This document shows positions 11,100 through 42,379 of a stretch of 64,000 nt of DNA, piece by piece. The position numbers and the translations under genes were made by a program. The notes below the pieces were generated by a model that made no database searches, had not been told where the DNA came from, and was given only the letters and a program-made list of their open reading frames with translations. Position 1 is the first letter of the stretch, and each line of letters opens with the position of its first letter. The DNA is taken from positions 40,076 to 104,075 of IMG/VR virus record IMGVR_UViG_3300017917_000400; one strand, given 5' to 3'. Source of the DNA: a virus.

Positions 11100-13493
11100 T
11101 TATACAATGTTTCCAGTGGCTTGTCTAGTGTATTTGGCTGTCTTGCTTAAGAAATCATTAGCATCAGATTGATGTGATACTAACTGTCCCATGTTCATAT
11201 TTAACTGATTTAACAAGGTAACCATTTCTTTTTCCATTCCCGGACCAAGTGCTGTTGGTGTTTTTAATTCTGGTTTTGGCTGTGTAGTTTGTTTTTCAAC
11301 TGCTGAACTTAATTTACTAATGCTGTCATTTAATGTGTTTAAGTTTACATTATTAAGGTCTTTAAATGCAGATGTAGTTACACTGATAGTATCTTTAAGT
11401 GTTTTTAATTTGATTACACTTTGATCAATACTAGTTCCTACAGATTCAGGTATGGCTAATTTAGAGAAATCGACACTCTTAAGTGCAGTATTAAGTTCGT
11501 TAACATCCTTTGACATTTGACCTGTAACCGCCTGTGCATTAGACGCTGCCTGCATATTTTGGGGAATATTTGCGCCCGCTGTTGGGGTCGCTGGAGCGAC
11601 AACAGTGTTAGTTCCGCCTGTTTCAAATGCTTTTCTTGCTTTTAAGAAATCTGGAGTAACCATATCCATTAGATCGTCTGCAAAATAAACAGCGGCACCC
11701 GCGGCAGTAGTTCCCATTAATACATATTTGTTTTTCTTGGCGGCGCCCATAATCTTTTGCCACCAACTTGGCTTTTCACCTATTTCTTCTGCACCTTCTT
11801 TTAAAATTTTACCAGGTGTAGTTCCAGGTTTTTCAGGAGTTCCTGGCTTTTTGCTATCAGGCTTGCTAGGTTCAGTTGTTGGTGCAGTTGTTGGGGCTTT
11901 ACCGTCTCTGTATTTGTCATAGGCCATGCCTGCGGCCTTAGCACCTACATAAGTTGCGGCTGCGGCACCCCCAACCTTAATAAGATCGTTAATTAGTACT
12001 TTAGCAGTTTCAGCACCAAATAGAGTTATCATTCTACGTGAGGGATCAATTTCTGCAAACTTGTCAGCGGCTGCCATACCAGCATCGGCAGCCATTTTCA
12101 TTCCTTTGGCTGTTAAATCTAATGTGCCTGTTTCAATAAAAGATTTTTTAAACGAATTTTGAATCTGAGTTAATGTTTGATCTAAACCAGCGGCAGCTCT
12201 TGTTGGATCTGTTGATTTTAATTTGTCTGCTTGTTCTTTGGCAGCGGCATCCATGGCTGCATTAGTATCCTGCATACCCTGCATCACTGCTTTACCTAAT
12301 GCTGGAGTAAAATTACCCATTGTGGCCATAGAACCCGCAAGTCTACGTTCACCTTCTGTTAACTGTTCGCCTGCTCGACCTGCTTTAGCAAATCCTTCAT
12401 TCATTCCTCTTACAGCATCTTTACTACCGTTGAACAGATCTCTACCCATTTTACCTGCATCAACACCTGCACTGGCCATGGTCATTGTAAAGTTACGTGC
12501 TTCTTTAGTTACTGCAACACCGCCAGATGCTATTAAATCTTTAAAGCCCGCTGCCATTTGACCGGTTGGATCTAATTGATTTAACTGTGCAATCTTAGCG
12601 TTGACTGCGGTACGTTCTTCTTCACTAAGTTTACCAAGAGCTAGTTTCATTCTAGCATCTCTCTGTGCGGCTTTGTTCTGTTCGTCTAATTGCTGTCTAG
12701 ATATACCAGTAGCCTTGGCCATCTTATCTAGTTCTTCGTTGTACTTGGCGGCACCTTCTGCAACTTCTGCATCGCTCATTGAGCGAAGTCTTCCACTTCT
12801 TTGCAGTTGTTCCATGTAACTAGCATTATAGTTAGCCAGTTCGTCCATGCTAAAGCCAAGTGAGGCAAATTTCTGTCCAGACTTATCCATGAATTTGCCT
12901 TGTATGGAAGCAAATTTATCAGCACCTTGGCTGGCTGTACCAAATGCCATAGATAACGTTGTAGAGTTTTCTTTGATTGTACGTGCAAAGATTTCTAAAG
13001 GAAGCCTTGCTTCACCGGCTTTTAATTGAGCAGTTAGTAATGAGTCGCCTAGATCAATACCTGACTGAGATAACTGTCTAAAAATCTGTACTTGATCGTC
13101 AAGAACTCCGCCAAACTGTGTTATTACATCACTGACACCTTTAAGATTAGCCAACGGCATTGAAGCCAAGTAGCCAGTAAAGTCTCTAATAGCCGGTGTT
13201 GTGTTAGTAAATGCTTTGCCAAATGTCTGTGCAGTGCCTTGTAGAGCATCGCCGAATACATTTATAGATTCTGTAAAGCCCTTTTCTGCTTGCGCTCCTT
13301 TTGCTCTAGCGTCGTCTGCCGCAGTTTTTGTAGCACCTGCATCACCACCGGCGGGTATACCACTAGGCTTGGCTCCCGATGTTTGACCTGCACCTTTGTT
13401 CAACTGCGCCAATATCTGGCGCATTGTAGATTCTTCGGCGGCTCCTTCAACTAATACTGTACCGTACTGCGGTATGGTGACTTTTATTGCCAT
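11100..13493 (-). CDS. Probable tail tape measure protein (797 aa)
   Basis: Ala/Gly/Met-rich helical protein, ELDKMAKATGISRQQL motif, two hydrophobic Ala/Gly segments, head-to-head with frameshifting chaperone gene. Confidence 0.7.
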   Translation of the reverse strand: MAIKVTIPQYGTVLVEGAAEESTMRQILAQLNKGAGQTSGAKPSGIPAGGDAGATKTAADDARAKGAQAEKGFTESINVFGDALQGTAQTFGKAFTNTTPAIRDFTGYLASMPLANLKGVSDVITQFGGVLDDQVQIFRQLSQSGIDLGDSLLTAQLKAGEARLPLEIFARTIKENSTTLSMAFGTASQGADKFASIQGKFMDKSGQKFASLGFSMDELANYNASYMEQLQRSGRLRSMSDAEVAEGAAKYNEELDKMAKATGISRQQLDEQNKAAQRDARMKLALGKLSEEERTAVNAKIAQLNQLDPTGQMAAGFKDLIASGGVAVTKEARNFTMTMASAGVDAGKMGRDLFNGSKDAVRGMNEGFAKAGRAGEQLTEGERRLAGSMATMGNFTPALGKAVMQGMQDTNAAMDAAAKEQADKLKSTDPTRAAAGLDQTLTQIQNSFKKSFIETGTLDLTAKGMKMAADAGMAAADKFAEIDPSRRMITLFGAETAKVLINDLIKVGGAAAATYVGAKAAGMAYDKYRDGKAPTTAPTTEPSKPDSKKPGTPEKPGTTPGKILKEGAEEIGEKPSWWQKIMGAAKKNKYVLMGTTAAGAAVYFADDLMDMVTPDFLKARKAFETGGTNTVVAPATPTAGANIPQNMQAASNAQAVTGQMSKDVNELNTALKSVDFSKLAIPESVGTSIDQSVIKLKTLKDTISVTTSAFKDLNNVNLNTLNDSISKLSSAVEKQTTQPKPELKTPTALGPGMEKEMVTLLNQLNMNMGQLVSHQSDANDFLSKTAKYTRQATGNIV

Positions 13494-13567: not shown

Positions 13568-14434
13568 ATGGAAAACCAAGAACAACAAGGAATGAATCCT
13601 TTAAAGAAATATTTCAGACAACCAAAGATATATCTTAAATTACCTAGTAGCGGTAATTTTTATCCCAAGGGTTCAATTGAATTTACACAAAATATGGAAT
13701 TTCCTGTGTATGCCATGACTGCTAGAGATGAAATCGCAATTAAAACTCCAGATGCACTAATGAATGGTCAAAGCACAGTTGACGTTATACAAAGTTGCAT
13801 TCCAAATATTAAAAATGCTTGGATGATTCCAAGTATCGACATTGATGCTATTCTTATCGCTATCCGTATTGCTACCTACGGAGAGCAAATTGATCTTGAT
13901 ATCAGTATTCCAAATACCACTATAACTAAGACATATACCACAGATCTAAGATTGGCCTTAGATAAACTACTTACTGCTGTCTACGATTCAGAAATTAAAA
14001 TAAATGATGAATTAACTGCGTTTATACGCCCTATTAACTATGAAGAATTTACTAAAAATTCAATTAAAACCTTAGAGGAACAAAGAATATTCAGCATAGT
14101 TAACAGTCAAGAAATGTCAGAACACCAAAAAATTGAGCAGTTTAATAAAAGTTTTAAAATTTTAACAGAAATTAATGTTGGTTCTATTGTTAAAAGTATT
14201 GTTAAGATTGTTACTCCTGACGGAGAAGTAACAAATATTGATCATATTAATGAATTTGTCAACAATTCGGACACAGAGTTTTTTAACAAAGTCACAGATC
14301 ATTTAGAAAAACAACGTGACAAGTTTACAATGCCTATGTTTAAAATTGTTACTACTCAAGAAGAGCGCGAACAAGGCGCTCCAGACGAATTTGAAACACC
14401 AGTATCGTTGGATGCTTCAAATTTTTTCGCATAA
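13568..14434 (+). CDS. Baseplate hub/tail assembly chaperone (gp26-like), 288 aa
   Basis: NPLKKYFRQPKIYLKLPSSG, MTARDE, DIDAILIAIRIATYGE; ends ..SNFFA on a slippery run. Confidence 0.75.
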   Translation: MENQEQQGMNPLKKYFRQPKIYLKLPSSGNFYPKGSIEFTQNMEFPVYAMTARDEIAIKTPDALMNGQSTVDVIQSCIPNIKNAWMIPSIDIDAILIAIRIATYGEQIDLDISIPNTTITKTYTTDLRLALDKLLTAVYDSEIKINDELTAFIRPINYEEFTKNSIKTLEEQRIFSIVNSQEMSEHQKIEQFNKSFKILTEINVGSIVKSIVKIVTPDGEVTNIDHINEFVNNSDTEFFNKVTDHLEKQRDKFTMPMFKIVTTQEEREQGAPDEFETPVSLDASNFFA

Positions 14435-14484
14435 AGCTCTTCAACCTTAACCTCGAAGACGCACTGCGAGTCGTTGAAGGGCTT
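14419..14484 (+). promoter_or_regulatory. Putative -1 programmed ribosomal frameshift signal
   Basis: In-frame A_AAT_TTT (14419-14425) and T_TTT_TTC (14422-14428); 12-bp stem AAGCUCUUCAAC (14434-14445)/GUUGAAGGGCUU (14473-14484). Confidence 0.75.
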
Positions 14485-14658
14485 GATAAAGAAGTTAAAG
14501 CGATTCGTACAGATCTACTAAAAATTACCTGGTACATGAGAGGTGGTATCACATTAGATGATGCCTTTGCTCTTACAGTTGAAGATCGTGAGATCATATC
14601 AGAGATTATCAAAGATAATCTAGAAACTACTAAGAAATCAGGATTACCTTTCTTTTAA
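14428..14658 (+). CDS. gp51-like C-terminal extension in the -1 frame (76 aa; predicted fusion about 363 aa); not in ORF track
   Basis: Frame open 14395-14658: RIKLFNLNLEDALRVVEGLDKEVKAIRTDLLKITWYMRGGITLDDAFALTVEDREIISEIIKDNLETTKKSGLPFF*; only ATG (14536) is internal and lacks an SD. Confidence 0.7.
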   Translation, partial: RIKLFNLNLEDALRVVEGLDKEVKAIRTDLLKITWYMRGGITLDDAFALTVEDREIISEIIKDNLETTKKSGLPFF

Positions 14659-28294: not shown

Positions 28295-31200
28295 ATGGCA
28301 TTCTCTAAAGATCAAAAAGAACCAAGTCTTCCAACTAGTAGCACAGACACTACTAGAAGTGCGGTTAATTTTTTACCTAGATATTTTAGAACTAGTACTA
28401 ACCAAAAATTCTTAAATGGTACATTAGATCAATTAATTTCTGTAGGCAATGTTGATAAGATCAATGCTTACATTGGCAGAAAAACAAACAAAGCCTATTC
28501 ACCTACTGACAACTATGTAGAAGAAATTTCACTAGAAAGATCTGCCTACCAATTAGAGCCAGCAATTTTAGTCAAAGATTCTTTAGATAATGTAACGTTT
28601 TTTAGCGACTATAACGATTATATTAATCAATTAAAATACTTTAATTCTTCAACAACTGATCACAATAAGATTAACAGTCAAGAGTCCTACTCATGGGATC
28701 CTCATATTGATTGGGATAAGTTCATCAATTACAGAGAATACTATTGGCTTCCAAAAGGTCCGCAAGTAATTGCAATTAAAGGCCAAAGCAAAAACATAAT
28801 CAGTACCTATACAGTAACATTAATTAACGATGTAGACAATATTGCATATTTGTTTACACCAGATGGCCTTACAAGAAATCCTTCAATTAAGTTGTACAGA
28901 GGACAAACTTATAAGTTTGAAATTAATTGTCCAGGAAGACCAATTGCATTTAAAACTGTTAGAGATTTAGATAATGCCTTTATATACGACGACGGCGTTA
29001 CTAGCGATACACCATATGTTGAGGATGGTACAATTACATTCACTATTCCCGACAATGCTCCTGATGTCTTGTATTATGTCAGTCAAAATGACATTAACAC
29101 ATCTGGCTTCTTTAAAATTTATGACATTGAAGAAAATACATTTATTGATGTAGAAAAAGAAATATTAGGTAAAAAGACTTATAATATTGATGGGACATTA
29201 GAACTTTCAAACGGTATGAAAGTTAATTTTATTGGAAACGTTACACCTGAAAAGTATTCAACAGACAATTGGTATGTAGAGGGAGTAGGTGACAAAATAC
29301 GATTAGTAGCAGAAGACTCTCTTCAAACCCCGTTAAGTTTTACATTAGATAAAGATATTGAATTTGACACAGAAAACTTTGATACGCAAGGTTTTGATGT
29401 TAATAACAATTATCCAGATAAAAAAGATTATATTACAATCAATAGATCTAGCAGAGATGGCAACCACTGGAGTAGATATAACAGATGGTTCCATAAATCT
29501 GTTATTGAAACGTCGGCAAATTATAATGATCAGCCTATAGACATTGATCAAACAGCAAGAGCTAAACGACCAATCATTGAATTTAAGCCAGATATCCAAC
29601 TATGGAATTTTGGTACCGAAGCCAAAAAAAGTGTTGACCTAGTTGATTTGTTTACTAAAGATATTTTTTCAACCATTGAAGGAAGTCTAGGATATACTAT
29701 TGACGGTGTATTTTTATTAGAGGGAATGCGAGTTTTATTTGCAGTTGATACCGATACGACCGTTAATGGAAGAATTTTTAAAATTGGATTTGTTACACAC
29801 CTGGGTGTAAAACGAATAACTCTGTTAGAAGAAGATGACACTGATCCAATAGACGGACAATCTGTATTAATCAAGGATGGAGATAATTTTAAAGGAAAGA
29901 TGTTCCATTACTCTAGCGGAGCATGGACAGAAAGCCAAGATAAAACTAACGTTAATGTGCCCCCGTTATTCGATGTTGTTGATGTAAATTCTGTTAGTTA
30001 TGGTGACAGAACAACTTATATTGGTTCTTCGTTTATAGGAACTAAGTTATTCAGTTATCAAGAAGGTGATACTTATGATAACGAATTAGGTTTAAACATT
30101 TCTTATAGCAACATTGGAAATATTGGCGATATACTTTTTGACTTTAATTTGCAAAAAGATTCTTTTACCTTTCAAGGTGAAGTTGAGTTAATTGAAAGAA
30201 ATTTAGACAAGGGTTACTTAAAAATAAATGACAGTATCTCTTCTAGCAGAAGACTAAACGGTTGGATCAAAACAGAATTCCTAACAAGACAGCCAATTAT
30301 TCGACAATATAATGTTACTGCTAATTTACTAAATTTATTTCCTATTGATGTTTACAAGAAAAGCGGAACGCTTGATGATTTAGAAATTAAAGTTTTTGTA
30401 AACAATAAGAAAAGATCTGATTACGAAGTCTACAGACAAAACAGCGTAGCATATATTCAATTTATAACCGACCTTTCAGTTAATGATGTATTAATCATCG
30501 AAACTATTTCTTCAGCAGAAAAAGTAAGCACTGAAGGTTATTACAAATTTCCAAGTAATTTAGAAAGTAATCCTCAAAATTTAAGTTTATACAATTTAAC
30601 ATTAGGACAAATTTCTAATCACGTTAAAACTATAGTTGATAATGTTTCATCTTTTGAGGGGTCCTTACCTGGCACAAGTAATTTAAGAGACCTTGGCGAT
30701 GTTTCAGGATATGGAACACAAGTGGTGCAACACTCTGGACCACTGGCACCAATCATTTATTCTTTTACAAATAAAAATGTAAACATAGTTAAAAGTTTAA
30801 GATATGCTCAAGATGAGTATTCTAAATTTAAAAGAAACTTAATTAGAACCGCAACCACATATGGCTACGACGGTATTACTAGAACACACTTAGATCTAAT
30901 CCTTAAGGAAGTGACTAAGGATACTACAATAGAAGCACCGTTTTATTTGAGCGATATGGTTCCGTTTGGAATTAATTTTGTCTACGAACAAGAAATTATA
31001 GATGATTCGTTTACTGATTATCCGTTAACATTTGATTTTAATCTAGACGAAGCCAGCTCAAAAGCAGTATTAGTCTATGTCAACGACGAACTACTATTGC
31101 ACGGTCGAGATTACATTTTTATAAACACTAGTTTTATAAAAATTCTATCTACAATTCAAACAGGCGACAATTTAAAAATAATACAATACGAGGAAACAGC

Positions 31201-34200
31201 CGGATGCTGTGTCCCGCCAACTCCTACTAAGTTGGGATTATATCCACTGTTTGAACCAAAAATATTTGTTGATAACACCTATCAAGTGCCTACTAAAGTA
31301 ATTCAAGGGCATGATGGTAGTATTACAGTTGCTTTCTCAAATCCAGGTGAACCAGACGAATTTAGAGATCAATTGTTGTTAGAATTAGAAATGAGAATTT
31401 ATAACAACATTAAGATTCGTTATGATGCCGAATTGTTTAATCTTGACAGTATGATTCCTGGTTATTTTAGAAATGCAGATATTTCTTTATCAGAATTAAA
31501 TTCTACTCTAAGACAAGAATTCTTAAATTGGACTGGCTTGATCAATGAAGATTACACAAAACATACATTCCTTGATCGAAACAATCCATTTACCTTTAAT
31601 TATAAATCTTTTGTTGATCCATCTGGAGAACAGTTATTAGGTTTTTGGAGAGGTATCTACAAATATTTTTACGACACCGACCGTCCTCACACACATCCGT
31701 GGGAGATGTTAGGATTTAGCATCAAACCAACATGGTGGGAAACAACTTACGGGCCTGCACCTTATACTAAAGATAATTTATTACTATGGAATGATTTAGC
31801 GGAAGGAACTATCAGAATTCCGGGAGAGTTTCCTAGAAAAAATAATCTATATGCTAGAGCAGACCTATTAAAATTTATTCCTGTTGACGGTGAAGGACAA
31901 TTAATTGATCCTTTAGAAACAGGTTTAGTTTCTGAATTTATTTCAGTCTTTACAGAAAAAGAATTTACCTTCGGTGATCATGCACCTATTGAAACTGCAT
32001 GGAGACGTAGTAGCCACTATCCGTTTGCTCTTATCACAACACTAACATTATTGCGACCAGCAAAGATGTTTGCACTTGGATTTGACAGAATTCGTCAATA
32101 CAGAGACGAAACAGGACAAATTGTCTATAAAACTCCAACAGGAAATTCTCGATTTAATCTAAGCAATTTAATATTTCCAAGTACAGTTAAAGACTCAACA
32201 AGAGTTTTTGCCAGCGGTCTAGTTAATTATTTGATTAGTTATGCCGTAAGCAAGTCCTTTACTATTGTTGATAATTTTAAATCTGATCTAAGTTCATTGC
32301 AGATTAAAATATCTAGTAAACTTGCTGGATTTACAACTAAAGAAAAATTTAAATTAATTTTAGATAGTCGTAGTCCGTTAAATCAAGGAAATGTTTTCAT
32401 TCCTCAAGAAAACTACGATATAATCTTAAATTCAAGTACACCTGTGACTACTATCAGTTATAGCGGTGTCATTATTGAAAAGTCTGCCAGCGGATTTATT
32501 CTCAAAGGTTATAATAAGACTATTTCAGAATTTAAGTATAATAAGCCCGTAGAAACAGTATCTGATCCAATTATTAGCGTTGGCGGAATATCAGAAACAT
32601 ACACTGAATGGCAGTCGTCAAAATATTATGCTAAAGGGTTAATAGTTAAGATCGATCAAAACTATTTTAGAGTTACAACCGGCCATACAAGTACCACAGC
32701 ATTTGAATCTAAGTATTTTGCCAAGTTACCGTCATTGCCTGTAATAGGCGGCCGAGAAATAATTTTAAGAAGAAATTTTGAATCTGAAATTAGTTCGTTG
32801 CACTATGGTGCGGAATTAAGAACAGTACAAGAAGTTGTAGACTTTTTGCTAGGTTATGGAAAGTATCTTACCGATGCAGGATTTGTTTTTGAATATTTTA
32901 ATCCAGCACTTAAAACAGTTACTGACTGGCAGACCAGTGCAAAAGAATTTACATTCTGGACCACACAAAATTGGGCAGAAGGCTCAGTTATTTCATTGAG
33001 TCCATCTGCTGAAGAATTAATTTACAATAAAGAATATTCTATTGTTGACAGCATATATGATCCATTCTATGAATATTCAATATTCAAACAAGATGGTGTT
33101 GAACTAGAACCTTCATTTACAAACTCTATCAGAGAAAATAATAATTTTAGCCTAAGACCAAAAAATACCGCAGACGGGTTGTATCATGCTACATTAAATC
33201 TTGTGCAAAAAGAGCATGTTTTAATTTTAGATGACGTAACAATCTTTAATGATATCATCTATGATCAAATACAGGGATACAGACAAGATAGAATAAAAGT
33301 AGTTGGTTATAAAATCAGCGACTGGACCGGCAATTTTAATATTCCAGGATTTGTTTATGACCGTGCAATAGTAACCGAGTGGAAACCATGGAAAGACTAT
33401 GCGCTTGGCGAAACTATAAAATATAAAGAATTTTATTATAGTGCTAGAAAAAATGTTTCTGGTGCAGAAACATTTGATGACAACGAATGGTATAAACTTT
33501 CTGATCGACCTGAGAGTAAATTAATTCCTAACTGGGATTATAGAGCAACACAGTTTGAAGATTTTTATGACCTAGATACAGACAGTTTTGACGTTGATCA
33601 GCAAAAATTTGCACAGCATTTGATCGGATATCAAAAGCGTCAATACCTTGAAAATATTATCAACGATGACGTAAGTCAGTATAAGTTTTATCAAGGTATG
33701 ATTCAGGAAAAGGGTACACAGAATAGCCTTTCAAAATTATTTGACGCATTGAATTCTGCTGATCAAGACAGTTTAGAATTCTTTGAAGAGTGGGCAATAC
33801 GTTTGGGTCAATACGGAGCCAGCGGAGGATTTGAGGAAGTTGAATACGTTCTTAACGAAGAAAAGTTCTTAATTAACCCACAGCCAATTGAACTAGTTAA
33901 TCAAATTCCGTTTGGCGTAAACGATTTTGTATATCGTATAACTCCAGATCAAGTATATTTAAAACCCGATGATTATTTACATGCTCCATTCCCAACTGTG
34001 TCATCACAGAACGAGTATATTAGAACAGCCGGTTATGTAAATTATGAAGATGTTGATTATATAATTTCTTCAAAGGACGAATTTGCAGATTATAATATCA
34101 AAGATCTAGTTGAAGGACAATATTTCTGGTTAGGATTTGACAGGAGTTCATGGAACGTTTATCGATTTACTAATTTTGCTAAATCAATTAAACGTGTTGA

Positions 34201-37200
34201 AGAAACTGATAATTTTAGAATTGTTTTAAATTTTAAATTACCTTTAGATATTGTGATAGGTAGTTATGTTGGTATTAATAATACCAACACATCGGTAGAA
34301 GGAATCAAACAAGTTATTGATGTTGGCTTAGATTGGTTTGAGATAACAATGCCTGCAGACATTGACACTGCGGCTATCATAGAAATTAATACAGCATTAA
34401 ACATTAATTTGTTTAAATTTACGTCTCAAAGATTATCTAGCATTAATGATTTAAATTCATTACCTATATCTGGTAAGAAAAATAATGAACTAGTGTGGAC
34501 CGACGGTACTAATAATAACTGGAGTGTATGGAAATTTAAAAAAACATATACTAGCAGTGAAATTTCTAATGAAGAAAATTATTTTAGTAAAGTCGTTGCT
34601 GTCAGCGACAATGAAACAGTATTAGCAGCCTCAGCATCAAATACTGTAATATATTACACACGACCAACTACTAATTTTGGTTGGGCTCTGCAGGATGTAT
34701 TAGCGCCATTATCTACAGAAACATTTGTTGACACTAACGGAAGTTTTGGCGAAAGTCTATGTTTTAATGCTGACGGATCTTATCTATTTGTTGGTGCTCC
34801 TAGATACGGTATAACATCGGTACCCGGAGTTCTACCAACAGATCCTCCAATAATAACCGAAGTTAATATTGGTTATGTTGCACAGTATACTAAAAATATC
34901 TATGGAAACTACGAATTTACTAGAGTTATACAAAATGCTACACCAACACAATTTCAAGAATTTGGTTCTAAAATTCAAGTAAACGGAAACACGCTTTATA
35001 TTGTTTCTGCTGGCGGAGTAGCACTTGATGGTAGCACATTAATTCCTGCATCATTAACTGCTTATAGTTTAATTTCAAATACTGTATTAGCATCATTAAC
35101 ATTTACTCCGGGTATTTCAGTAACTGATTTTAATGTTTCACAGAATAATACTATTGTAATTTCTAAAGATGACGAATCGGTATCGGTAATTCGATTAAGC
35201 AGTTCAACATTTGTTACAGTATCAGAAATTAATCTCAGCGACTTTGTTTCTATAGAACAAATTGAAACTGGCAGTAATTTTGCAACATCGGCAGCAATTT
35301 CTAAAGATGGAAATTATGTTGCTATTGGTATACCTGGTTATTCTAAATTAGCCTCAAATCAAGGCGCCGTGGCTCTGTTTAAATTATCCGGAGCAACGTA
35401 TCTAGCAGACGATTTAATAACTAGTCCGTTAAATCAAGACAGCGAAAAATTTGGTTATAGAATTAGATTCAACGCAGGCAGCGACAGACTAGTAGTCTAC
35501 AGTTTTGGCGGTAGTCAAACAGTTGAAACAGTTATTGATAGCGGAGAAACAACATTTGATTTAAATGTTACTAAATTTATCGAAGTTGAAGAATTTACCG
35601 GAAGTATTCGTGTATATGAAAAATATGATACTAAGTTTTTAATTGGTGATGAGTTAGAACCACAAAGCATTTTAGGAAATAATTACGGAGATGCTTTTGT
35701 AGTCGTTAATAGTGTTTACGTTAATGATCAAACAATTACAAACGGTGCATTTTATGAATTTAAAGGTCTAGATAAATCTTGGACAAAATATCGTAGTCCT
35801 GAACCTTCAGTTGACCTTTCAAAGATAAAATCTCTGTTCTTATACAATACAAGAACTAACAGTGTAGTTGCAAATCTTGATTTTATTGATCCAATTAACG
35901 GAAAGATTTTAGGTATAGCAGAACAAGAATTAAGTTACAAAACTTATTATGATCCGGCTGTTTACAATGTAGGCACTGAAACTGTAGTAGTAGATTCCTT
36001 AACATCCTGGACTAACAGAAACGTTGGAAAACTATGGTGGGATTTAAACACAGTTAAATTTGCAAATCCGTTACAAGGCTCTGTTGTTTACAAAGCAAAT
36101 ACATGGAATACAGTTTATAATGAATCAACAGTTGATATCTATGAATGGGTAGAAACTGAATACTTGCCAGCAGAGTGGGACAGTCTTGCAGATACCGAAA
36201 CCGGGCTAGCCTTGGGCATTAGCGGTCAATCTAAATATGGAAATCTTGCTTACAGTTTGACACAGAGGTACGATAACGTAAGTAAGACATTTAGAAACAT
36301 TTACTATTTCTGGGTTAAAAATAAAGTTACTGTTCCTGATGTAAGTTTTAGAAAAACATCAGCCAACGATGTTGCTAATTTAATAGCCAATCCAAAAGGT
36401 CAGGGAATACAGTACATAACTTTATTAGGTGCAAATCAATTAGCATTAGTGAATTGTAAAGATTTAATCGTAGGCAAAGATGTTGCATTGAATGTTCGTT
36501 ATTGGACTATTTCTAATACTGAACAAAATATTCATGCACACTATCAACTTCTAGCCGAAGGAAATACAAATAAAAAATTAAACAAATATGTTGAACAAAA
36601 ATGGTTTGATAGTTTAGTTGGATATGATATTAATGGCGGTGAAGTACCAGATCCAAGATTGCCTGCAAAACTAAAGTATGGTATTCTTAACAAACCTCGT
36701 CAGGGAATGTTTATTAACAGACTTGAGGCATTAAAACAATTTATTGAAAGAGTCAATTCTGTATTAATTACTAGATCAATTATTGATGATTTAAATCTTT
36801 CAAAATTAAATTCTAAAGAAGATCCTCCAAGCGAAATTTCTGGAAAATATGATATAGCAATAGACACTCAGAGTCAGATAAGATTTGTTGGTTCGACTGG
36901 ATTCCAGCAAGCATCTGTTTCTCCTGTAGTTGAAGCCGGTAAGATTGTTCGCGTAATTGTAACTAGTGCAGGCCGCGGCTACAAACTACCTCCAGAAATT
37001 ACAATAGTAGGCACAGGTTCTGGAGCAAAATTAACAGCAGTAATTAATTCAATTGGAGAAATTACTAGTGTAACTGTAAATAATTCTGGTCAAGATTATT
37101 TAGATACAACTGTATTATCAGTTCGACCATTCACAATCTTAGTTAACAGCGACGAAACTGCGGCTAACAAGTGGAGTTTATACATCTGGAATACTGCAAC

Positions 37201-40200
37201 TAGTAGTTGGTTTAGATCTAAAACACAGACCTACGACGTAACCAAACATTGGAATTATGTTGACTGGTATGCAGATGGATACACAGCATTTACAAAAATT
37301 GATTACCAGGTTGATTTTTCTTATGAAATGAGTTTTATTGATATTGCCATCGGCGATTTAATAAAAATTAAAAATGAAAAATCTGGTGGTTGGATATTAT
37401 TAGAAAAAATTAATAATCTTTCTACTGATAACGTTTCTTTAAATTATAAAACAGTAGGCAGACAAAGCGGCACAATTCAATTTAATTCTAATCTTTACAA
37501 GTTTACAAATAGTAACATTGGATTTGATAGTTTTACCTACGACAGCGATGTGTACGATGACGAACCAAAAGAAGAATTAAGAATTATTTTAGATGTAATT
37601 AAAAACAACATTTTAGTTGACGATTTAGAAATAGAATATAACAAATTATTCTTTGCAAGTCTTCGTTATGTATTCTCAGAACAAACATTTGTTGACTGGG
37701 CATTTAAGACAAGTTTTGTTAAGAGTCAACATAATCTTGGAACACTACAACAAAAAGTTAATTACAAAAATGATAACCTAGCCAGTTACGAAGAATATAT
37801 TAATGAAGTTAAACCTTACCGTAGTAAAGTAAGAGAATTTATCAGCAATTATAATGCAATAGATAATACCAACACTGGTGTAACTGACTTTGATCTTTCT
37901 GCAAAATATAACATAGAAGAAGGAAAAATACTACCCTTTGATGTAAAGGTTAGAAATGATGCAATCGTTTACTCAGATTCTTCAATTTTGAGCGAACCAT
38001 ACAGTGATTGGTTAGATAATGTAGGACACAGTGTAACAGAAATTATTGTTACAAATGGCGGTTCTGGTTACCAAGCACCTCCGTCTGTAGAGATTATCGG
38101 AAATTGTAAGTTACAGGCTACAGCCCAGGCCTACATATCCAGCGGATCTGTGACACGAATTATTGTTAAAAATTTAGGACAAGGATACATTACTACACCT
38201 TCTGTAGTTATAACTGGTTCAACTGGAACTACGGGTACCACAGCAACTGCCTACGCAGTATTGGGTAATAGCCTTTCTAGAACTAACACAATTGGTGTAA
38301 AATTTGATAGAACAATTCCTGAATACAAAATTAGTTCTATTACAGTTTCTCAAACTTTTAATGGCACAGGATCAAGAACTTTATTTGAGTTGACCTGGCC
38401 CATTGACGTTAGAACTAATAAGACATCTGTAATCGTTTCCAACGAAGAATTATTGTCTACAGACTTCACAGTCTATAACAAAAAAGATACTTCAAAAGGA
38501 TACACAAGATATATTGGAGTTCTAGAACTAGACACAGCCGCAGAAATTGGCACAGCCAATGTTGTTATTACCTATACAAAAGACATTAATCTTCTAAGTG
38601 CCGCAGATAGAATTCAGTATTATTACAATCCTAAGACTGGGCAATTAGGTAAAGACCTTGGACAGTTAATGCAAGGCGTCGATTATGGCGGTGTTGAAGT
38701 TACTGGTCTAGGATTTGAGATTGGATCAGGTTGGGACGGCCTACCATGGTTTACTTCAGGTTGGGACGATTTTGACGAAGCATATACTGATAACTTATTT
38801 GTTTCTGACGGAACATCTAGATCATTCAGCCTTCCATACATTCCCGAAGATGGAGAATTAATTACAGTATACCTAAACGGTGTTAGAATTGATGATCCTA
38901 ACTATGATGAATATACAGCCGCAGAAGAAGCATATAATACATCTGCCGCGGAACTAGCAACATTAACCGCAGAGAGAGATTTACTGCAAACACAGACTGA
39001 TGCTAAACAAGACGAACTTGACGGGTTAACTCAGGATCTAATCGATACACAGGCAGTCATTGCAGATCTTGAAGCTCAACTAGCAGTTACACCGCCAAGT
39101 AATCCATTATATTTTACTTTACAAACTTTATTAGCAGAAAACGAAGCGCAAGAAGCAGAATTAATTGACGACATTAACACAGTCAACGGAGAATTGTTAG
39201 ATTTACAAGCAGACTTAGCCGCTAAACAAATTCAAGTAACTGCTAAAACAACTGAAGTTGCAGACAATCTTGCAACATTAAATTCTGCTCCTGAAATTGT
39301 AAATGAAGATGCACAGATGAATACATTTGTAGGCGACGGTAGTACTGATATTCCTATTGTAATACCTGCCTACGTTGATTTAAACGAAGGCGACACAATA
39401 ATTTTACGTAAGAGTACTAGCGACGGAAGTTTTAGACCAAACCGACAATTCTTTGATTCTGAAATTACAGGCGGCGACTTTACTTACACTTCTGCTCGAG
39501 GAATTCGAGCAGAAGAAATTATTATTGATGGTGATAATTTTGTAACACCTACTACAAACTATGCTCCTGAAGAAGTAGTTACTGGACAGGTTGTAGATTC
39601 AGTAGCAATCACAGTGTTCCATACAGTTGAAGACGGCGCACCAGTAATTGTTACAAGACATTATATTACTACAGAACCTGAAAATGAATTCTTAATTGGT
39701 CAGCGACCTAACAGTACTCAGGCCGCATTTGTTAAAGTAGACGGCTTAATCAAAAAACAAGATGTAGATTATACATTAAATTTTGCTCAATCAAAGATTG
39801 TTTTCCTAACAAATCTTCCAATTAACAGCGAAGTTGTTGTTACATCAATGAGCAAAAATGGTTTAAATGTTTTAGATTCGGATACATTTATTGGAGACGG
39901 TGTTACAACTGAATTCGTAACAGTTGCTCGCTGGGCAGGAGATTATTCTGTATTAGTATCAGTTAATGGTAATTCCGCTACTGTTACAACTTTCGTCACT
40001 GACGAAACTTATGCTGAAGTTGGAAATATTGGTATACGTTTTTCAACAGCACCAGCAAATACAGCAATCATAGATTATACAGTTTTAAGTTCGTTAATAG
40101 ATACTGTAAGTCGAGTTTCTGCTGAAACAGTAATCTATGATGGCACTAGTCAAGTCTACGAGTTAAACAACTTACCAGCCAACTTAGAACCGTTTGATAA

Positions 40201-42379
40201 TAATGTAATTGTTGAGCATCAAGGAAAAATACTACGTCCTGCTGACACTGTTTATTTTGACGTTGTTGGCACAGTTAGAACTTACACAGTAAGCGTAGTT
40301 GACTATGCTATCAATACAATTGATGCTAACAAAGTTCGCGTATACAAAAACGGTATTGAATTAGCAATTTCAAAAGAATTTACTTGGAAATCTTCTAATA
40401 ACCAATTAACTATTAAGCGCGGTGTTGCAGTTACTGGAGACAAAATTGCATTAGTTATTTTAGAAAATGCAGAATACTACATAGAAAAGGATTCAACAGG
40501 TGTACAACTTCGATTGTTGGATTCTTATTCTGTAAATGATAAGTTTGTAGTAACAACATTTACTAACCATGATATTTTAGATATTGAACGATCTAATGAT
40601 TATATTAAATCAGAAAGTACAATCACAGAAGGATCAGTTGATTACTACAGATTTAACCAGTTATTAGCGGGCCGCATAGAACTTAGAAACACCGCTATTG
40701 GTGCTGAATATGTATGGTTAACTCTTAATGGAGAATTGCTAACTCCGGAGATTGATTACATCTTAGAAGATAATTTAAACTATATTCAAATTGATAAAAA
40801 TAGAACATTGTTGTCAACAGACGTAATTGAATTAATAGTCTTTAGCAGTGACGTTACATTTAATAAACCATTTGGATATAAAATATTCAAAGATTTAATG
40901 AATAGAACTTTCTATAAGAGATTAGATGCTAGTGCATCAACTGTACTAGCACAACCTTTAAATTACTATGACACATCTATCGCGTTGGAAGACGCAGGTA
41001 ACTTACCAGTTCCATTACGCAGTCAAAATCAACCAGGCATCATATTCATCGATAGAGAGCGTATTGAATATCTTGAAAAAGATGGAAATACATTAAGATA
41101 TCTAAGAAGAGGAACATTAGGAACCGGAATACCTACTACACACCCTGCAGGAACTGTAGTAACAGATTCTAGCGTTGGGCAAACAATTCCTTATAAGGAC
41201 GAAACACAGACTGTGGTGTTAATTGCAGGTGGATATGATCAAGCATCTACAATATTTGAAAACAGTCTAGGCATGAGTGTAACTTCGTTAAAATATAATT
41301 TTAACAATAACACAGCGTTTCCGTTGGGTACACAAATTGCCACAGTTACAGGAACAGGCTTTAAAGAAAATGTACAAATACTTGTAGGAGATCCAACACT
41401 AACAATTAATTTTACCGCTACTGAAATTAATTCTGCAGGAGAAATTATTGTAAGTTCAATTGACAGAATTTATGAAGGTAAGGAAATAGTATTTTCAGAT
41501 ACAGTATTTGGTGGCATTGAATTAGAAACATCTTACTATGTTCTAACTTACGGACAAGATCCAACTACAGAAGAATATTACATTACAGTCAGTGAAGAAA
41601 TTAATGGAACTCCTGTTTCACTTTCTGTAAGCAGTGGATCTATGATAGGCACTCATAGTAGAGCAAAATGCAAGACAACATACATTAGTAGCACAGAGTT
41701 AACCTTTATAACTCAGGCTGAAGTAGTTGGTGCATACGACTTAATTGTACAGAATCCGTCATTTACAGTTGGACCAGTGACAGTAGCAGAAACTAGTTAT
41801 GTAGCACCAGAAGCAGTGCGTTATGTTCAGATATTGCTGCCATTTGCACCACTTCCAAATCCAAGAACAGCCACTGGTTGGTATAAAAACACTTCAGAAA
41901 TTAGTGTTTCAAATATTCAGCCAGGACGAGGATATACTATTAGTTCTGTTGGCACATCAGACTTTATGAGTATTGGCGCAACATCTAACACTGTTGGTAC
42001 AGAATTTATTGCTACAGCAGTAGGATCCGGCACTGGCACTGTGCTAGATTATACAAGTATTCCTTTAGAGTATTGGGAAGGTATGGACATAGAGGTATTT
42101 GTTGCAGGCCGCAGATTACGCAAAGCGCCAATCACAGTTTGGGATGAAAGTTTAGGTCCAGATAGCCCAAGCGGTGACAAACAATTACAGGCAGAATTTG
42201 CTGTAAACAAAAACGTTGGTGCTTATGTACGTTTAACAGAGCCCCCAATGAAGGGTTCCAAAGTTATAGTGCAAAAGAAAATAGGTCAAACATGGGTAGC
42301 AGAAGGGCAAAGCCTTGTAGATGCTCAAACAGACCAAGCAAAATTCGTTCGTGCAAAGAGTGCGGATTTGCCTCGATAA
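28295..42379 (+). CDS. Giant baseplate wedge/structural protein (gp7-like position), 4694 aa
   Basis: Single 14-kb ORF after gp6; N-terminal FLPRYFRT; EVKPYRSKVRE; propeller-like repeats, V..GGSGY..PP.V.I repeats, Ig-like domains, coiled-coil insert. Confidence 0.75.
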   Translation: MAFSKDQKEPSLPTSSTDTTRSAVNFLPRYFRTSTNQKFLNGTLDQLISVGNVDKINAYIGRKTNKAYSPTDNYVEEISLERSAYQLEPAILVKDSLDNVTFFSDYNDYINQLKYFNSSTTDHNKINSQESYSWDPHIDWDKFINYREYYWLPKGPQVIAIKGQSKNIISTYTVTLINDVDNIAYLFTPDGLTRNPSIKLYRGQTYKFEINCPGRPIAFKTVRDLDNAFIYDDGVTSDTPYVEDGTITFTIPDNAPDVLYYVSQNDINTSGFFKIYDIEENTFIDVEKEILGKKTYNIDGTLELSNGMKVNFIGNVTPEKYSTDNWYVEGVGDKIRLVAEDSLQTPLSFTLDKDIEFDTENFDTQGFDVNNNYPDKKDYITINRSSRDGNHWSRYNRWFHKSVIETSANYNDQPIDIDQTARAKRPIIEFKPDIQLWNFGTEAKKSVDLVDLFTKDIFSTIEGSLGYTIDGVFLLEGMRVLFAVDTDTTVNGRIFKIGFVTHLGVKRITLLEEDDTDPIDGQSVLIKDGDNFKGKMFHYSSGAWTESQDKTNVNVPPLFDVVDVNSVSYGDRTTYIGSSFIGTKLFSYQEGDTYDNELGLNISYSNIGNIGDILFDFNLQKDSFTFQGEVELIERNLDKGYLKINDSISSSRRLNGWIKTEFLTRQPIIRQYNVTANLLNLFPIDVYKKSGTLDDLEIKVFVNNKKRSDYEVYRQNSVAYIQFITDLSVNDVLIIETISSAEKVSTEGYYKFPSNLESNPQNLSLYNLTLGQISNHVKTIVDNVSSFEGSLPGTSNLRDLGDVSGYGTQVVQHSGPLAPIIYSFTNKNVNIVKSLRYAQDEYSKFKRNLIRTATTYGYDGITRTHLDLILKEVTKDTTIEAPFYLSDMVPFGINFVYEQEIIDDSFTDYPLTFDFNLDEASSKAVLVYVNDELLLHGRDYIFINTSFIKILSTIQTGDNLKIIQYEETAGCCVPPTPTKLGLYPLFEPKIFVDNTYQVPTKVIQGHDGSITVAFSNPGEPDEFRDQLLLELEMRIYNNIKIRYDAELFNLDSMIPGYFRNADISLSELNSTLRQEFLNWTGLINEDYTKHTFLDRNNPFTFNYKSFVDPSGEQLLGFWRGIYKYFYDTDRPHTHPWEMLGFSIKPTWWETTYGPAPYTKDNLLLWNDLAEGTIRIPGEFPRKNNLYARADLLKFIPVDGEGQLIDPLETGLVSEFISVFTEKEFTFGDHAPIETAWRRSSHYPFALITTLTLLRPAKMFALGFDRIRQYRDETGQIVYKTPTGNSRFNLSNLIFPSTVKDSTRVFASGLVNYLISYAVSKSFTIVDNFKSDLSSLQIKISSKLAGFTTKEKFKLILDSRSPLNQGNVFIPQENYDIILNSSTPVTTISYSGVIIEKSASGFILKGYNKTISEFKYNKPVETVSDPIISVGGISETYTEWQSSKYYAKGLIVKIDQNYFRVTTGHTSTTAFESKYFAKLPSLPVIGGREIILRRNFESEISSLHYGAELRTVQEVVDFLLGYGKYLTDAGFVFEYFNPALKTVTDWQTSAKEFTFWTTQNWAEGSVISLSPSAEELIYNKEYSIVDSIYDPFYEYSIFKQDGVELEPSFTNSIRENNNFSLRPKNTADGLYHATLNLVQKEHVLILDDVTIFNDIIYDQIQGYRQDRIKVVGYKISDWTGNFNIPGFVYDRAIVTEWKPWKDYALGETIKYKEFYYSARKNVSGAETFDDNEWYKLSDRPESKLIPNWDYRATQFEDFYDLDTDSFDVDQQKFAQHLIGYQKRQYLENIINDDVSQYKFYQGMIQEKGTQNSLSKLFDALNSADQDSLEFFEEWAIRLGQYGASGGFEEVEYVLNEEKFLINPQPIELVNQIPFGVNDFVYRITPDQVYLKPDDYLHAPFPTVSSQNEYIRTAGYVNYEDVDYIISSKDEFADYNIKDLVEGQYFWLGFDRSSWNVYRFTNFAKSIKRVEETDNFRIVLNFKLPLDIVIGSYVGINNTNTSVEGIKQVIDVGLDWFEITMPADIDTAAIIEINTALNINLFKFTSQRLSSINDLNSLPISGKKNNELVWTDGTNNNWSVWKFKKTYTSSEISNEENYFSKVVAVSDNETVLAASASNTVIYYTRPTTNFGWALQDVLAPLSTETFVDTNGSFGESLCFNADGSYLFVGAPRYGITSVPGVLPTDPPIITEVNIGYVAQYTKNIYGNYEFTRVIQNATPTQFQEFGSKIQVNGNTLYIVSAGGVALDGSTLIPASLTAYSLISNTVLASLTFTPGISVTDFNVSQNNTIVISKDDESVSVIRLSSSTFVTVSEINLSDFVSIEQIETGSNFATSAAISKDGNYVAIGIPGYSKLASNQGAVALFKLSGATYLADDLITSPLNQDSEKFGYRIRFNAGSDRLVVYSFGGSQTVETVIDSGETTFDLNVTKFIEVEEFTGSIRVYEKYDTKFLIGDELEPQSILGNNYGDAFVVVNSVYVNDQTITNGAFYEFKGLDKSWTKYRSPEPSVDLSKIKSLFLYNTRTNSVVANLDFIDPINGKILGIAEQELSYKTYYDPAVYNVGTETVVVDSLTSWTNRNVGKLWWDLNTVKFANPLQGSVVYKANTWNTVYNESTVDIYEWVETEYLPAEWDSLADTETGLALGISGQSKYGNLAYSLTQRYDNVSKTFRNIYYFWVKNKVTVPDVSFRKTSANDVANLIANPKGQGIQYITLLGANQLALVNCKDLIVGKDVALNVRYWTISNTEQNIHAHYQLLAEGNTNKKLNKYVEQKWFDSLVGYDINGGEVPDPRLPAKLKYGILNKPRQGMFINRLEALKQFIERVNSVLITRSIIDDLNLSKLNSKEDPPSEISGKYDIAIDTQSQIRFVGSTGFQQASVSPVVEAGKIVRVIVTSAGRGYKLPPEITIVGTGSGAKLTAVINSIGEITSVTVNNSGQDYLDTTVLSVRPFTILVNSDETAANKWSLYIWNTATSSWFRSKTQTYDVTKHWNYVDWYADGYTAFTKIDYQVDFSYEMSFIDIAIGDLIKIKNEKSGGWILLEKINNLSTDNVSLNYKTVGRQSGTIQFNSNLYKFTNSNIGFDSFTYDSDVYDDEPKEELRIILDVIKNNILVDDLEIEYNKLFFASLRYVFSEQTFVDWAFKTSFVKSQHNLGTLQQKVNYKNDNLASYEEYINEVKPYRSKVREFISNYNAIDNTNTGVTDFDLSAKYNIEEGKILPFDVKVRNDAIVYSDSSILSEPYSDWLDNVGHSVTEIIVTNGGSGYQAPPSVEIIGNCKLQATAQAYISSGSVTRIIVKNLGQGYITTPSVVITGSTGTTGTTATAYAVLGNSLSRTNTIGVKFDRTIPEYKISSITVSQTFNGTGSRTLFELTWPIDVRTNKTSVIVSNEELLSTDFTVYNKKDTSKGYTRYIGVLELDTAAEIGTANVVITYTKDINLLSAADRIQYYYNPKTGQLGKDLGQLMQGVDYGGVEVTGLGFEIGSGWDGLPWFTSGWDDFDEAYTDNLFVSDGTSRSFSLPYIPEDGELITVYLNGVRIDDPNYDEYTAAEEAYNTSAAELATLTAERDLLQTQTDAKQDELDGLTQDLIDTQAVIADLEAQLAVTPPSNPLYFTLQTLLAENEAQEAELIDDINTVNGELLDLQADLAAKQIQVTAKTTEVADNLATLNSAPEIVNEDAQMNTFVGDGSTDIPIVIPAYVDLNEGDTIILRKSTSDGSFRPNRQFFDSEITGGDFTYTSARGIRAEEIIIDGDNFVTPTTNYAPEEVVTGQVVDSVAITVFHTVEDGAPVIVTRHYITTEPENEFLIGQRPNSTQAAFVKVDGLIKKQDVDYTLNFAQSKIVFLTNLPINSEVVVTSMSKNGLNVLDSDTFIGDGVTTEFVTVARWAGDYSVLVSVNGNSATVTTFVTDETYAEVGNIGIRFSTAPANTAIIDYTVLSSLIDTVSRVSAETVIYDGTSQVYELNNLPANLEPFDNNVIVEHQGKILRPADTVYFDVVGTVRTYTVSVVDYAINTIDANKVRVYKNGIELAISKEFTWKSSNNQLTIKRGVAVTGDKIALVILENAEYYIEKDSTGVQLRLLDSYSVNDKFVVTTFTNHDILDIERSNDYIKSESTITEGSVDYYRFNQLLAGRIELRNTAIGAEYVWLTLNGELLTPEIDYILEDNLNYIQIDKNRTLLSTDVIELIVFSSDVTFNKPFGYKIFKDLMNRTFYKRLDASASTVLAQPLNYYDTSIALEDAGNLPVPLRSQNQPGIIFIDRERIEYLEKDGNTLRYLRRGTLGTGIPTTHPAGTVVTDSSVGQTIPYKDETQTVVLIAGGYDQASTIFENSLGMSVTSLKYNFNNNTAFPLGTQIATVTGTGFKENVQILVGDPTLTINFTATEINSAGEIIVSSIDRIYEGKEIVFSDTVFGGIELETSYYVLTYGQDPTTEEYYITVSEEINGTPVSLSVSSGSMIGTHSRAKCKTTYISSTELTFITQAEVVGAYDLIVQNPSFTVGPVTVAETSYVAPEAVRYVQILLPFAPLPNPRTATGWYKNTSEISVSNIQPGRGYTISSVGTSDFMSIGATSNTVGTEFIATAVGSGTGTVLDYTSIPLEYWEGMDIEVFVAGRRLRKAPITVWDESLGPDSPSGDKQLQAEFAVNKNVGAYVRLTEPPMKGSKVIVQKKIGQTWVAEGQSLVDAQTDQAKFVRAKSADLPR

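Follow-up and report, generated by a model that had tools for sequence, protein, structure and literature searches.

A conserved −1 frameshift is reportedly present in tail assembly chaperone genes, where Xu, Hendrix and Duda are said to have described it in 2004 (Mol Cell 16:11; lambda G/GT; P2 E/E+E′). In T4, gp26 and gp51 are hub assembly chaperones, and gp51 is not found in the particle (PMC3004832, Table 2). According to the sentence in PMC10885494 that cites Vladimirov, Gautam and Davidson (2022, Virology 566:9), frameshifting is replaced in some T4-like phages by a short gene together with a longer, fused one; as far as its title and this citing sentence show, the G/GT analogy for the T4-like gp26/gp51 chaperone genes has thus already been published. 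No description of a frameshift in gp26/gp51 (PF12322) was found in the literature, which in the case of Vladimirov et al. means the title and the citing sentence.

The locus described here lies in a stretch of 64,000 nucleotides of viral DNA (IMG/VR record IMGVR_UViG_3300017917_000400, positions 40,076 to 104,075), the whole of which is hereafter referred to as the window. The features relevant to the analysis are as follows, in window coordinates:

11100..13493, − strand: divergent neighbouring gene of 797 aa, possible tape measure protein; context, not part of the cassette
13568..14434, + strand: 0-frame gene of 288 aa, encoding the short product (PF12322 T4_baseplate, the gp26/gp51 family; phrog_150 baseplate hub; hhalign, AF2)
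13568..14658, + strand: composite long product, predicted to have 363 aa, made of residues 1-287 (0 frame) and 76 residues of the −1 frame; junction ..S-N-F-F/R-I-K-L-F..
14419..14425, + strand: overlapping second heptamer A_AAT_TTT, in 0-frame phase, not conserved; a slip there would give the same product
14422..14428, + strand: slippery heptamer T_TTT_TTC (P-site TTT = F286, A-site TTC = F287)
14428..14658, + strand: −1 frame extension, 76 codons and stop; helical C-terminal domain with a W-Y-M-R-G-G motif and an LPFF end
14432..14434, + strand: 0-frame stop TAA, one codon past T_TTT_TTC
14434..14484, + strand: stem-loop, putative frameshift stimulator; 12-bp stem (14434-14445/14473-14484, one G-U) around a small inner hairpin

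Sequence comparison points, with a probability of about 0.87, to a cassette for programmed −1 ribosomal frameshifting, located at the 3′ end of the apparently single PF12322 hub/tail assembly chaperone gene of this phage, from which two isoforms would be produced. A first-pass annotation of this DNA had proposed a programmed −1 frameshift with products of 288 and 363 aa, and this proposal is strongly supported by the comparative evidence: an invariant heptamer, selection on the −1 frame, downstream structure and fused homologues. The details given in that annotation also held. The open reading frame of 288 aa ends in TCA AAT TTT TTC GCA TAA, with two overlapping X_XXY_YYZ heptamers, both in 0-frame phase. 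The open stretch of the −1 frame covers 14395-14658 in the ORF listing, and its first ATG, GTG or TTG is found only at 14536, the codon of an internal Met. The 12-bp stem with one G-U pair corresponds to the minimum-energy fold of 14429-14490 and begins 5 nt past T_TTT_TTC.

According to the proposed mechanism, most ribosomes would terminate after reading ..AAT TTT TTC GCA TAA, yielding a 288-aa product built like T4 gp26. The others, a fraction, would pause on T_TTT_TTC, held by the stem-loop 5 nt downstream, and the two tRNA-Phe would slip back by one base, with translation then continuing on CGC ATA AAG.. as far as 14658. The 363-aa product would consist of the same body plus the 76-aa helical C-terminal domain, an architecture like that of T4 gp51, and both isoforms would cooperate in hub and tape-measure assembly, like lambda G and GT. 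We infer the ribosomal nature of the shift and its efficiency; the chaperone role of the PF12322 product is likewise suggested by the T4 literature (PMC3004832) and by the citation of Vladimirov et al. (2022) in PMC10885494.

Three scans of IMG/VR yielded 163 readable loci with a tail of the window type, 145 of them distinct. TTTTTTC was found exactly at the junction in all 80 loci recovered with a profile of the tail. The scan with a profile of the fused proteins described below recovered a further 80 loci, 75 of which were split, and the heptamer was present in every one of these 75. Over the distinct loci, for which protein identity ranged from 30 to 90%, TTTTTTC occurred in the same phase in 145/145, an arrangement far beyond chance. 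The first-pass annotation had suggested examining homologues for a conserved slippery F-F end and −1 register, and this is the pattern obtained. The AAT codon needed for A_AAT_TTT was present at only 74 of the 145 loci, so conservation is restricted to T_TTT_TTC. The 0-frame stop followed the heptamer after one codon (79 loci), three (1), four (56) or six (9). Among cultured phages, the nearest relatives were two jumbo phages, Atu_ph07 and Phosso of Sinorhizobium (about 32% identity), both of which have CAT TTT TTC GNA TGA GGCTCTT, with a homologue of the tail in the −1 frame. A blastn search of phage genomes with the window region gave no match.

The evolution of the tail identifies the frame under selection. 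The first −1 codon encoded arginine at all 145 loci, with a free wobble base (CGC 58, CGG 32, CGT 30 and CGA 25), whereas any of A, G, V, E or D occurred as the 0-frame residue overlapping it. At only 11 of the 145 loci was the second tail codon ATG, the others having ATA, CTA, GTA, CAA, ACC and so on, and at 74 loci there was no ATG, GTG or TTG in the first 12 tail codons. This CGN pattern, together with the scarcity of start codons, indicates that selection on the −1 frame sets in with the first base past the heptamer, ahead of every potential start codon. Homologues with variable frame relationships and an upstream ATG of their own, which the first-pass annotation had named as evidence against a frameshift, were not what we observed, the phase being constant and ATG rare at the second codon. 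When the window was compared with locus L004 over tail codons 1-36, synonymous changes outnumbered non-synonymous ones by 12 to 5 in the −1 frame, versus ratios of 1/19 and 3/18 in the other two frames. Between the window and its close relatives, the changes in these codons, which lie ahead of the internal Met, were mostly synonymous in the −1 frame. The 76-aa tail was maintained without indels among homologues, and a search of 1.8 billion representative proteins with the tail profile returned 436 matches.

The fold of 14429-14490 had a minimum free energy (MFE) of −19.7 kcal/mol (z −3.39), and one of 200 dinucleotide shuffles was as good. RNAalifold provided no consensus structure for 82 aligned sites. 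Counts of pairs at fixed register showed no significant excess for the register of the window (54.4% paired vs 52.9% in shuffled data), and only a moderate signal for the commonest register. Given that no pairing register was conserved, each sequence was tested against synonymous-codon resamples preserving the tail protein, for 90 representatives with less than 70% tail identity. The 101 nt past the heptamer had a mean MFE of −22.8 kcal/mol, as against −15.5 kcal/mol for the resamples (replicate means −16.3 to −14.7). The family-wide median z was −2.43, with 68% of the sequences below −1.64, and the control region, codons 36-69 of the same ORF, displayed no excess stability (median z −0.08). 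The window's own z in this test was modest (−1.69). The best uninterrupted helix starting 3-10 nt past the heptamer had a mean length of 8.9 bp, versus 5.65 bp for the resamples. The 5′ arm of the stem always began within this 3-10 nt interval, whereas the distance to the 3′ arm differed between lineages. The first-pass annotation had suggested looking for compensatory stem changes in homologues; an excess of downstream stability was seen across the family, without a shared pairing register. No Rfam family was found at the locus; the only match, a sub-threshold one to Ocean-VII RNA at 14362-14386 (+), shortly ahead of the slip site and within the coding sequence (20 bits vs a gathering threshold of 53.5, E 0.0015), is probably due to chance.

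The 288-aa protein matched Pfam family PF12322 (T4_baseplate) at 30.9 bits, above the cut-off of 24.5, and phrog_150 (baseplate hub); PF12322 was matched by 80 of 82 homologues. T4 gp26 (208 aa) and T4 gp51 (249 aa) are both full-length members of PF12322/phrog_150. They span positions 14-235 and 13-280 of phrog_150, respectively, from which gp51 can be described as a gp26-like body with about 48 aa added at the C-terminus. At the end of T4 gp26, an F-F pair is followed by three residues (..K-E-F-F-E-L-L), and the F-F pair of the window protein is followed by one. The C-terminal extensions of gp51 from Straboviridae aligned plainly with the −1 tails of Kyanoviridae. The 76-aa tail of the window matched no PHROG or Pfam family on its own, and the similarity of the window-type tail profile to the gp51 extensions was moderate (hhalign probability 50%, P 1.6e-4, colinear over 54 columns); the −1 tail of the window may correspond to the C-terminal extension of T4 gp51. 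AF2 models had a pLDDT of 91 for a fused protein and 92.8 for the window protein, the tail being predicted to form a helical hairpin. Foldseek gave no PDB match for the fused model, a profile search of the PDB gave no sequence match, and the Pfam tail-assembly-chaperone families were not matched by the window protein or the homologues searched. VIA-align returned only generic helical-hairpin matches: the HK97 chaperone 2ob9_B had a Z of 4.3 (97/104 residues aligned to the fused model), below noise level, and 2ob9 was not among the top 50 matches of the window model.

Some homologues carry the tail without a change of frame. Among the best 150 of the 436 tail-profile matches, 18 were proteins of 319-351 aa with the tail in frame at the C-terminus and PF12322 in the first ~255 residues. 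The heptamer was absent from all five fused loci in IMG/VR, the junctions of which read ..x-F-R-x-[KR]-L... Alignment of the window protein with the fused proteins (hhalign, 99.95% probability) placed F287 on F267 of fused protein P0040, in which the next residue is R. As there is no indel at this position, the predicted trans-frame product ..S-N-F-F/R-I-K-L.. is colinear with an ordinary single-ORF protein. Two CxxC zinc-ribbon motifs are common in the family and invariant in the fused homologues (C102, C105, C248 and C251 of P0040); both have been lost from the window protein and its closest relatives.

The arrangement extends to other T4-like phages. In the cyanophages P-SSM2 and S-PM2, gp26 ends in AGT/TCT TTT TTC GNA TAA. 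The 57-aa protein annotated as gp51 is encoded in the −1 frame, and this frame stays open upstream as far as the heptamer and through it. In P-SSM2, gp26 covers positions 5-232 of phrog_150 and the −1 piece positions 230-278, the two being colinear across the slip site; the −1 piece also matches phrog_634 ("baseplate hub assembly catalyst"), with a value of 1.6e-29 for the Kyanoviridae tails. A T_TTT_TTY end and −1 tail were also found in pelagiphages HTVC008M and Mosig, in Syn9, ACG-2014e and S-N03, in the KVP40-like Vibrio phage VH7D and in Sinorhizobium phage phiM12. In all, the slip-site arrangement was present in more than 160 independent assemblies and about 10-11 cultured-phage genomes; the cyanophage-type tail was found in 591 phage records by tblastn, and the window-type tail in at least 578 IMG/VR contigs. 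The tail of ACG-2014e has no Met ahead of ..ALMQ... None of the phage records examined contained a joined CDS annotation. For ACG-2014e (L190, NC_026928.1 5509-5689) and VH7D (L191), no gp51 is annotated, and the −1 tail of ~180 nt appears in RefSeq as an intergenic gap after gp26. The earlier suggestion, by which the small genes annotated as gp51 in T4-like phages represent extensions made by frameshifting, held at every cyanophage, pelagiphage, vibriophage and rhizobiophage junction examined.

PF12322 was then searched for in whole genome records. A single PF12322 gene was present in each of 13 frameshift-type genomes (Atu_ph07, Phosso, a 322-kb contig rated 100% complete, two large partial contigs, P-SSM2, S-PM2, HTVC008M, VH7D, phiM12, Syn9, ACG-2014e and S-N03), and two in T4, RB49, 44RR2.8t, RB16, Acinetobacter phage Octan and Proteus phage Pm5461. 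The five contigs of the fused type all had two, adjoining PF12322 genes; in the two inspected (L098 and L100), the second copy was short and stopped at the position of the junction. The record of the window's own genome is ~28% complete, and its single PF12322 copy refers to that part only. This split between one and two genes argues that short and long isoforms may both be needed, the frameshift supplying both from one gene. Two other arrangements were recorded. One contig (L101, IMGVR_UViG_3300029922_000874, 11717-13198) has two PF12322 domains in a single open frame of 678 aa, which may represent a head-to-tail fusion of the short and long paralogues, or two genes not separated by a stop in that frame. 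In Escherichia phage RB16 (L186, HM134276.1), the genes follow one another as 54-51-26 on the same strand, and 51 and 26, which share 8 nt, form a tandem long/short pair, whereas 26 and 51 are divergent in T4.

The 797-aa gene adjoining the locus had been taken, in the first-pass annotation, for the tape measure gene. The adjacency was confirmed, the gene being divergent, but its identity is no more than a lead, because it rests on language-model similarity with no family match. The protein had no Pfam or PHROG function and no similarity to T4 gp29; 29 of its 30 named Atlas feature matches, which are language-model features, were tape-measure clusters, at 0.93. It displayed weak similarity (27% identity over 179 aa) to a 927-aa protein encoded by the divergent neighbour of the fused gene in L098 (153-2936, −). 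Near the C-terminus of this 927-aa protein there is a VanY D-Ala-D-Ala carboxypeptidase domain, so that it probably combines a tape measure with a lytic function. In P-SSM2, S-PM2 and Syn9, a large gene directly follows the cassette, and in HTVC008M an annotated tape measure gene follows after one small gene. The depositors of Acinetobacter phage Octan (L187, MT409116.1) annotate gp51 as "tape measure protein assembly chaperone". Elsewhere in the window, a single ORF of 4694 aa (28295-42379, +) follows an ORF of 1143 aa in a structural region.

The same fused protein would be made if RNA polymerase, rather than the ribosome, slipped at this site, adding one U in the T6 run such that some mRNAs encoded it directly. 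The site is a homopolymer, and the predicted protein is identical in the two cases. Efficient transcriptional slippage requires a run of about 8-9 or more, however, and the T run was exactly 6 at 145/145 loci, never longer. The selected structure 3-10 nt downstream also has the geometry of a ribosomal stimulator, and we know of no role for downstream RNA structure in polymerase slippage. The T6 run and this structure favour the ribosome, and polymerase slippage is considered quite unlikely. Still less probable is the existence of two separate genes, the tail being an independent "gp51" translated by termination-reinitiation at an ATR codon overlapping the stop, or from the Met at 14536. This is how annotators treat the tail, as a separate gene, and an ATG does overlap or follow the stop (ATGA) in Atu_ph07, Phosso and some cyanophages. 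The rarity of ATG as the candidate start codon (11/145) and the selection acting in the −1 frame on the Arg codon ahead of it argue against such a start, as does the synonymous evolution of tail codons 1-36 in that frame, where there is no start codon. In-frame fused homologues, and the lack of an annotated gp51 in ACG-2014e and VH7D, together with the absence of a Met before ..ALMQ.. in the former, point in the same direction. An assembly or sequencing error in the homopolymer, also envisaged in the first-pass annotation, or a decaying gene, has a negligible probability: homopolymers are prone to errors, but the same arrangement recurs in the independent assemblies and cultured-phage genomes counted above, and the downstream frame is under purifying selection.

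A different question is whether the frameshift is real but only its long product matters, the 288-aa form being a by-product, or shifting being near-complete, unlike the situation for G/GT. The 0-frame stop comes almost immediately, and the short form therefore carries nothing unique. Nevertheless, a separate short paralogue is present in every lineage that has lost the frameshift (the five fused-type contigs, T4 and five other Straboviridae), and this retention argues that the short form is needed. We consider a role for the long product alone to be unlikely, and favour a programmed ribosomal frameshift in which both products, as we infer from the distribution of paralogues, are required.

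A broader interpretation, to which we give an even chance, is that the T4 superfamily started out with the −1 frameshift of the gp26/gp51 family and that this is still much its most frequent arrangement, shared by the Kyanoviridae cyanophages, pelagiphages, KVP40-like vibriophages, relatives of phiM12 and Atu_ph07 and uncultured jumbo phages in their hundreds. The frameshift would have gone undescribed, being mis-annotated as a separate "gp51" or left unannotated, and lineages would have switched between the frameshift and a pair of short and long paralogues. If so, these switches would show, as an experiment made by nature, that neither isoform is dispensable, with frameshifting and gene duplication as interchangeable genetic routes to the same pair. 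The annotation of a core structural-assembly gene would be corrected in several hundred phages, including model marine cyanophages, in which the "57-aa gp51" would be the C-terminal domain of a frameshift product of ~300 aa. The long-puzzling gp26/gp51 pair of T4 would be tied to the short/long chaperone scheme that long-tailed phages universally share, and the U_UUU_UUC sites, natural, numerous and followed by diverse stems, could be used in studies of frameshift efficiency.

The cassette resembles those of several known systems. As in E. coli dnaX (tau/gamma), a −1 shift on a homopolymeric heptamer followed by a stem-loop would give isoforms sharing an N-terminal body; in dnaX, however, the shifted frame terminates at once and the shifted product is the short one, whereas it is the long one here. 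The gene belongs to the same PF12322/phrog_150 family as T4 gp26 and gp51, and the extension of gp51 aligns with −1 tails, although the window-type tail is longer (76 aa, vs ~48 aa). Unlike T4, with its pair of genes, the window phage, the Kyanoviridae, VH7D, phiM12 and the Atu_ph07-like phages have one gene and a −1 frameshift. In its logic the cassette resembles lambda G/GT, in which a slippery heptamer near the end of the chaperone gene also gives a short and a C-terminally extended product with a shared N-terminus; as for G and GT, neither predicted product is expected in the virion, and the gene adjoins a tape-measure-like gene, immediately upstream of it in the cyanophages. It differs from lambda in its PF12322 family, in a body of ~290 aa that is much larger than gpG, in a 0-frame stop only 1-6 codons past the slip site and, in the window, in its orientation, the gene being divergent from the putative tape measure gene rather than upstream of it on the same strand. 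With these differences, the predicted cassette joins a known class, that of tail assembly chaperone genes with a conserved frameshift, to which it would add a case from the PF12322 family.
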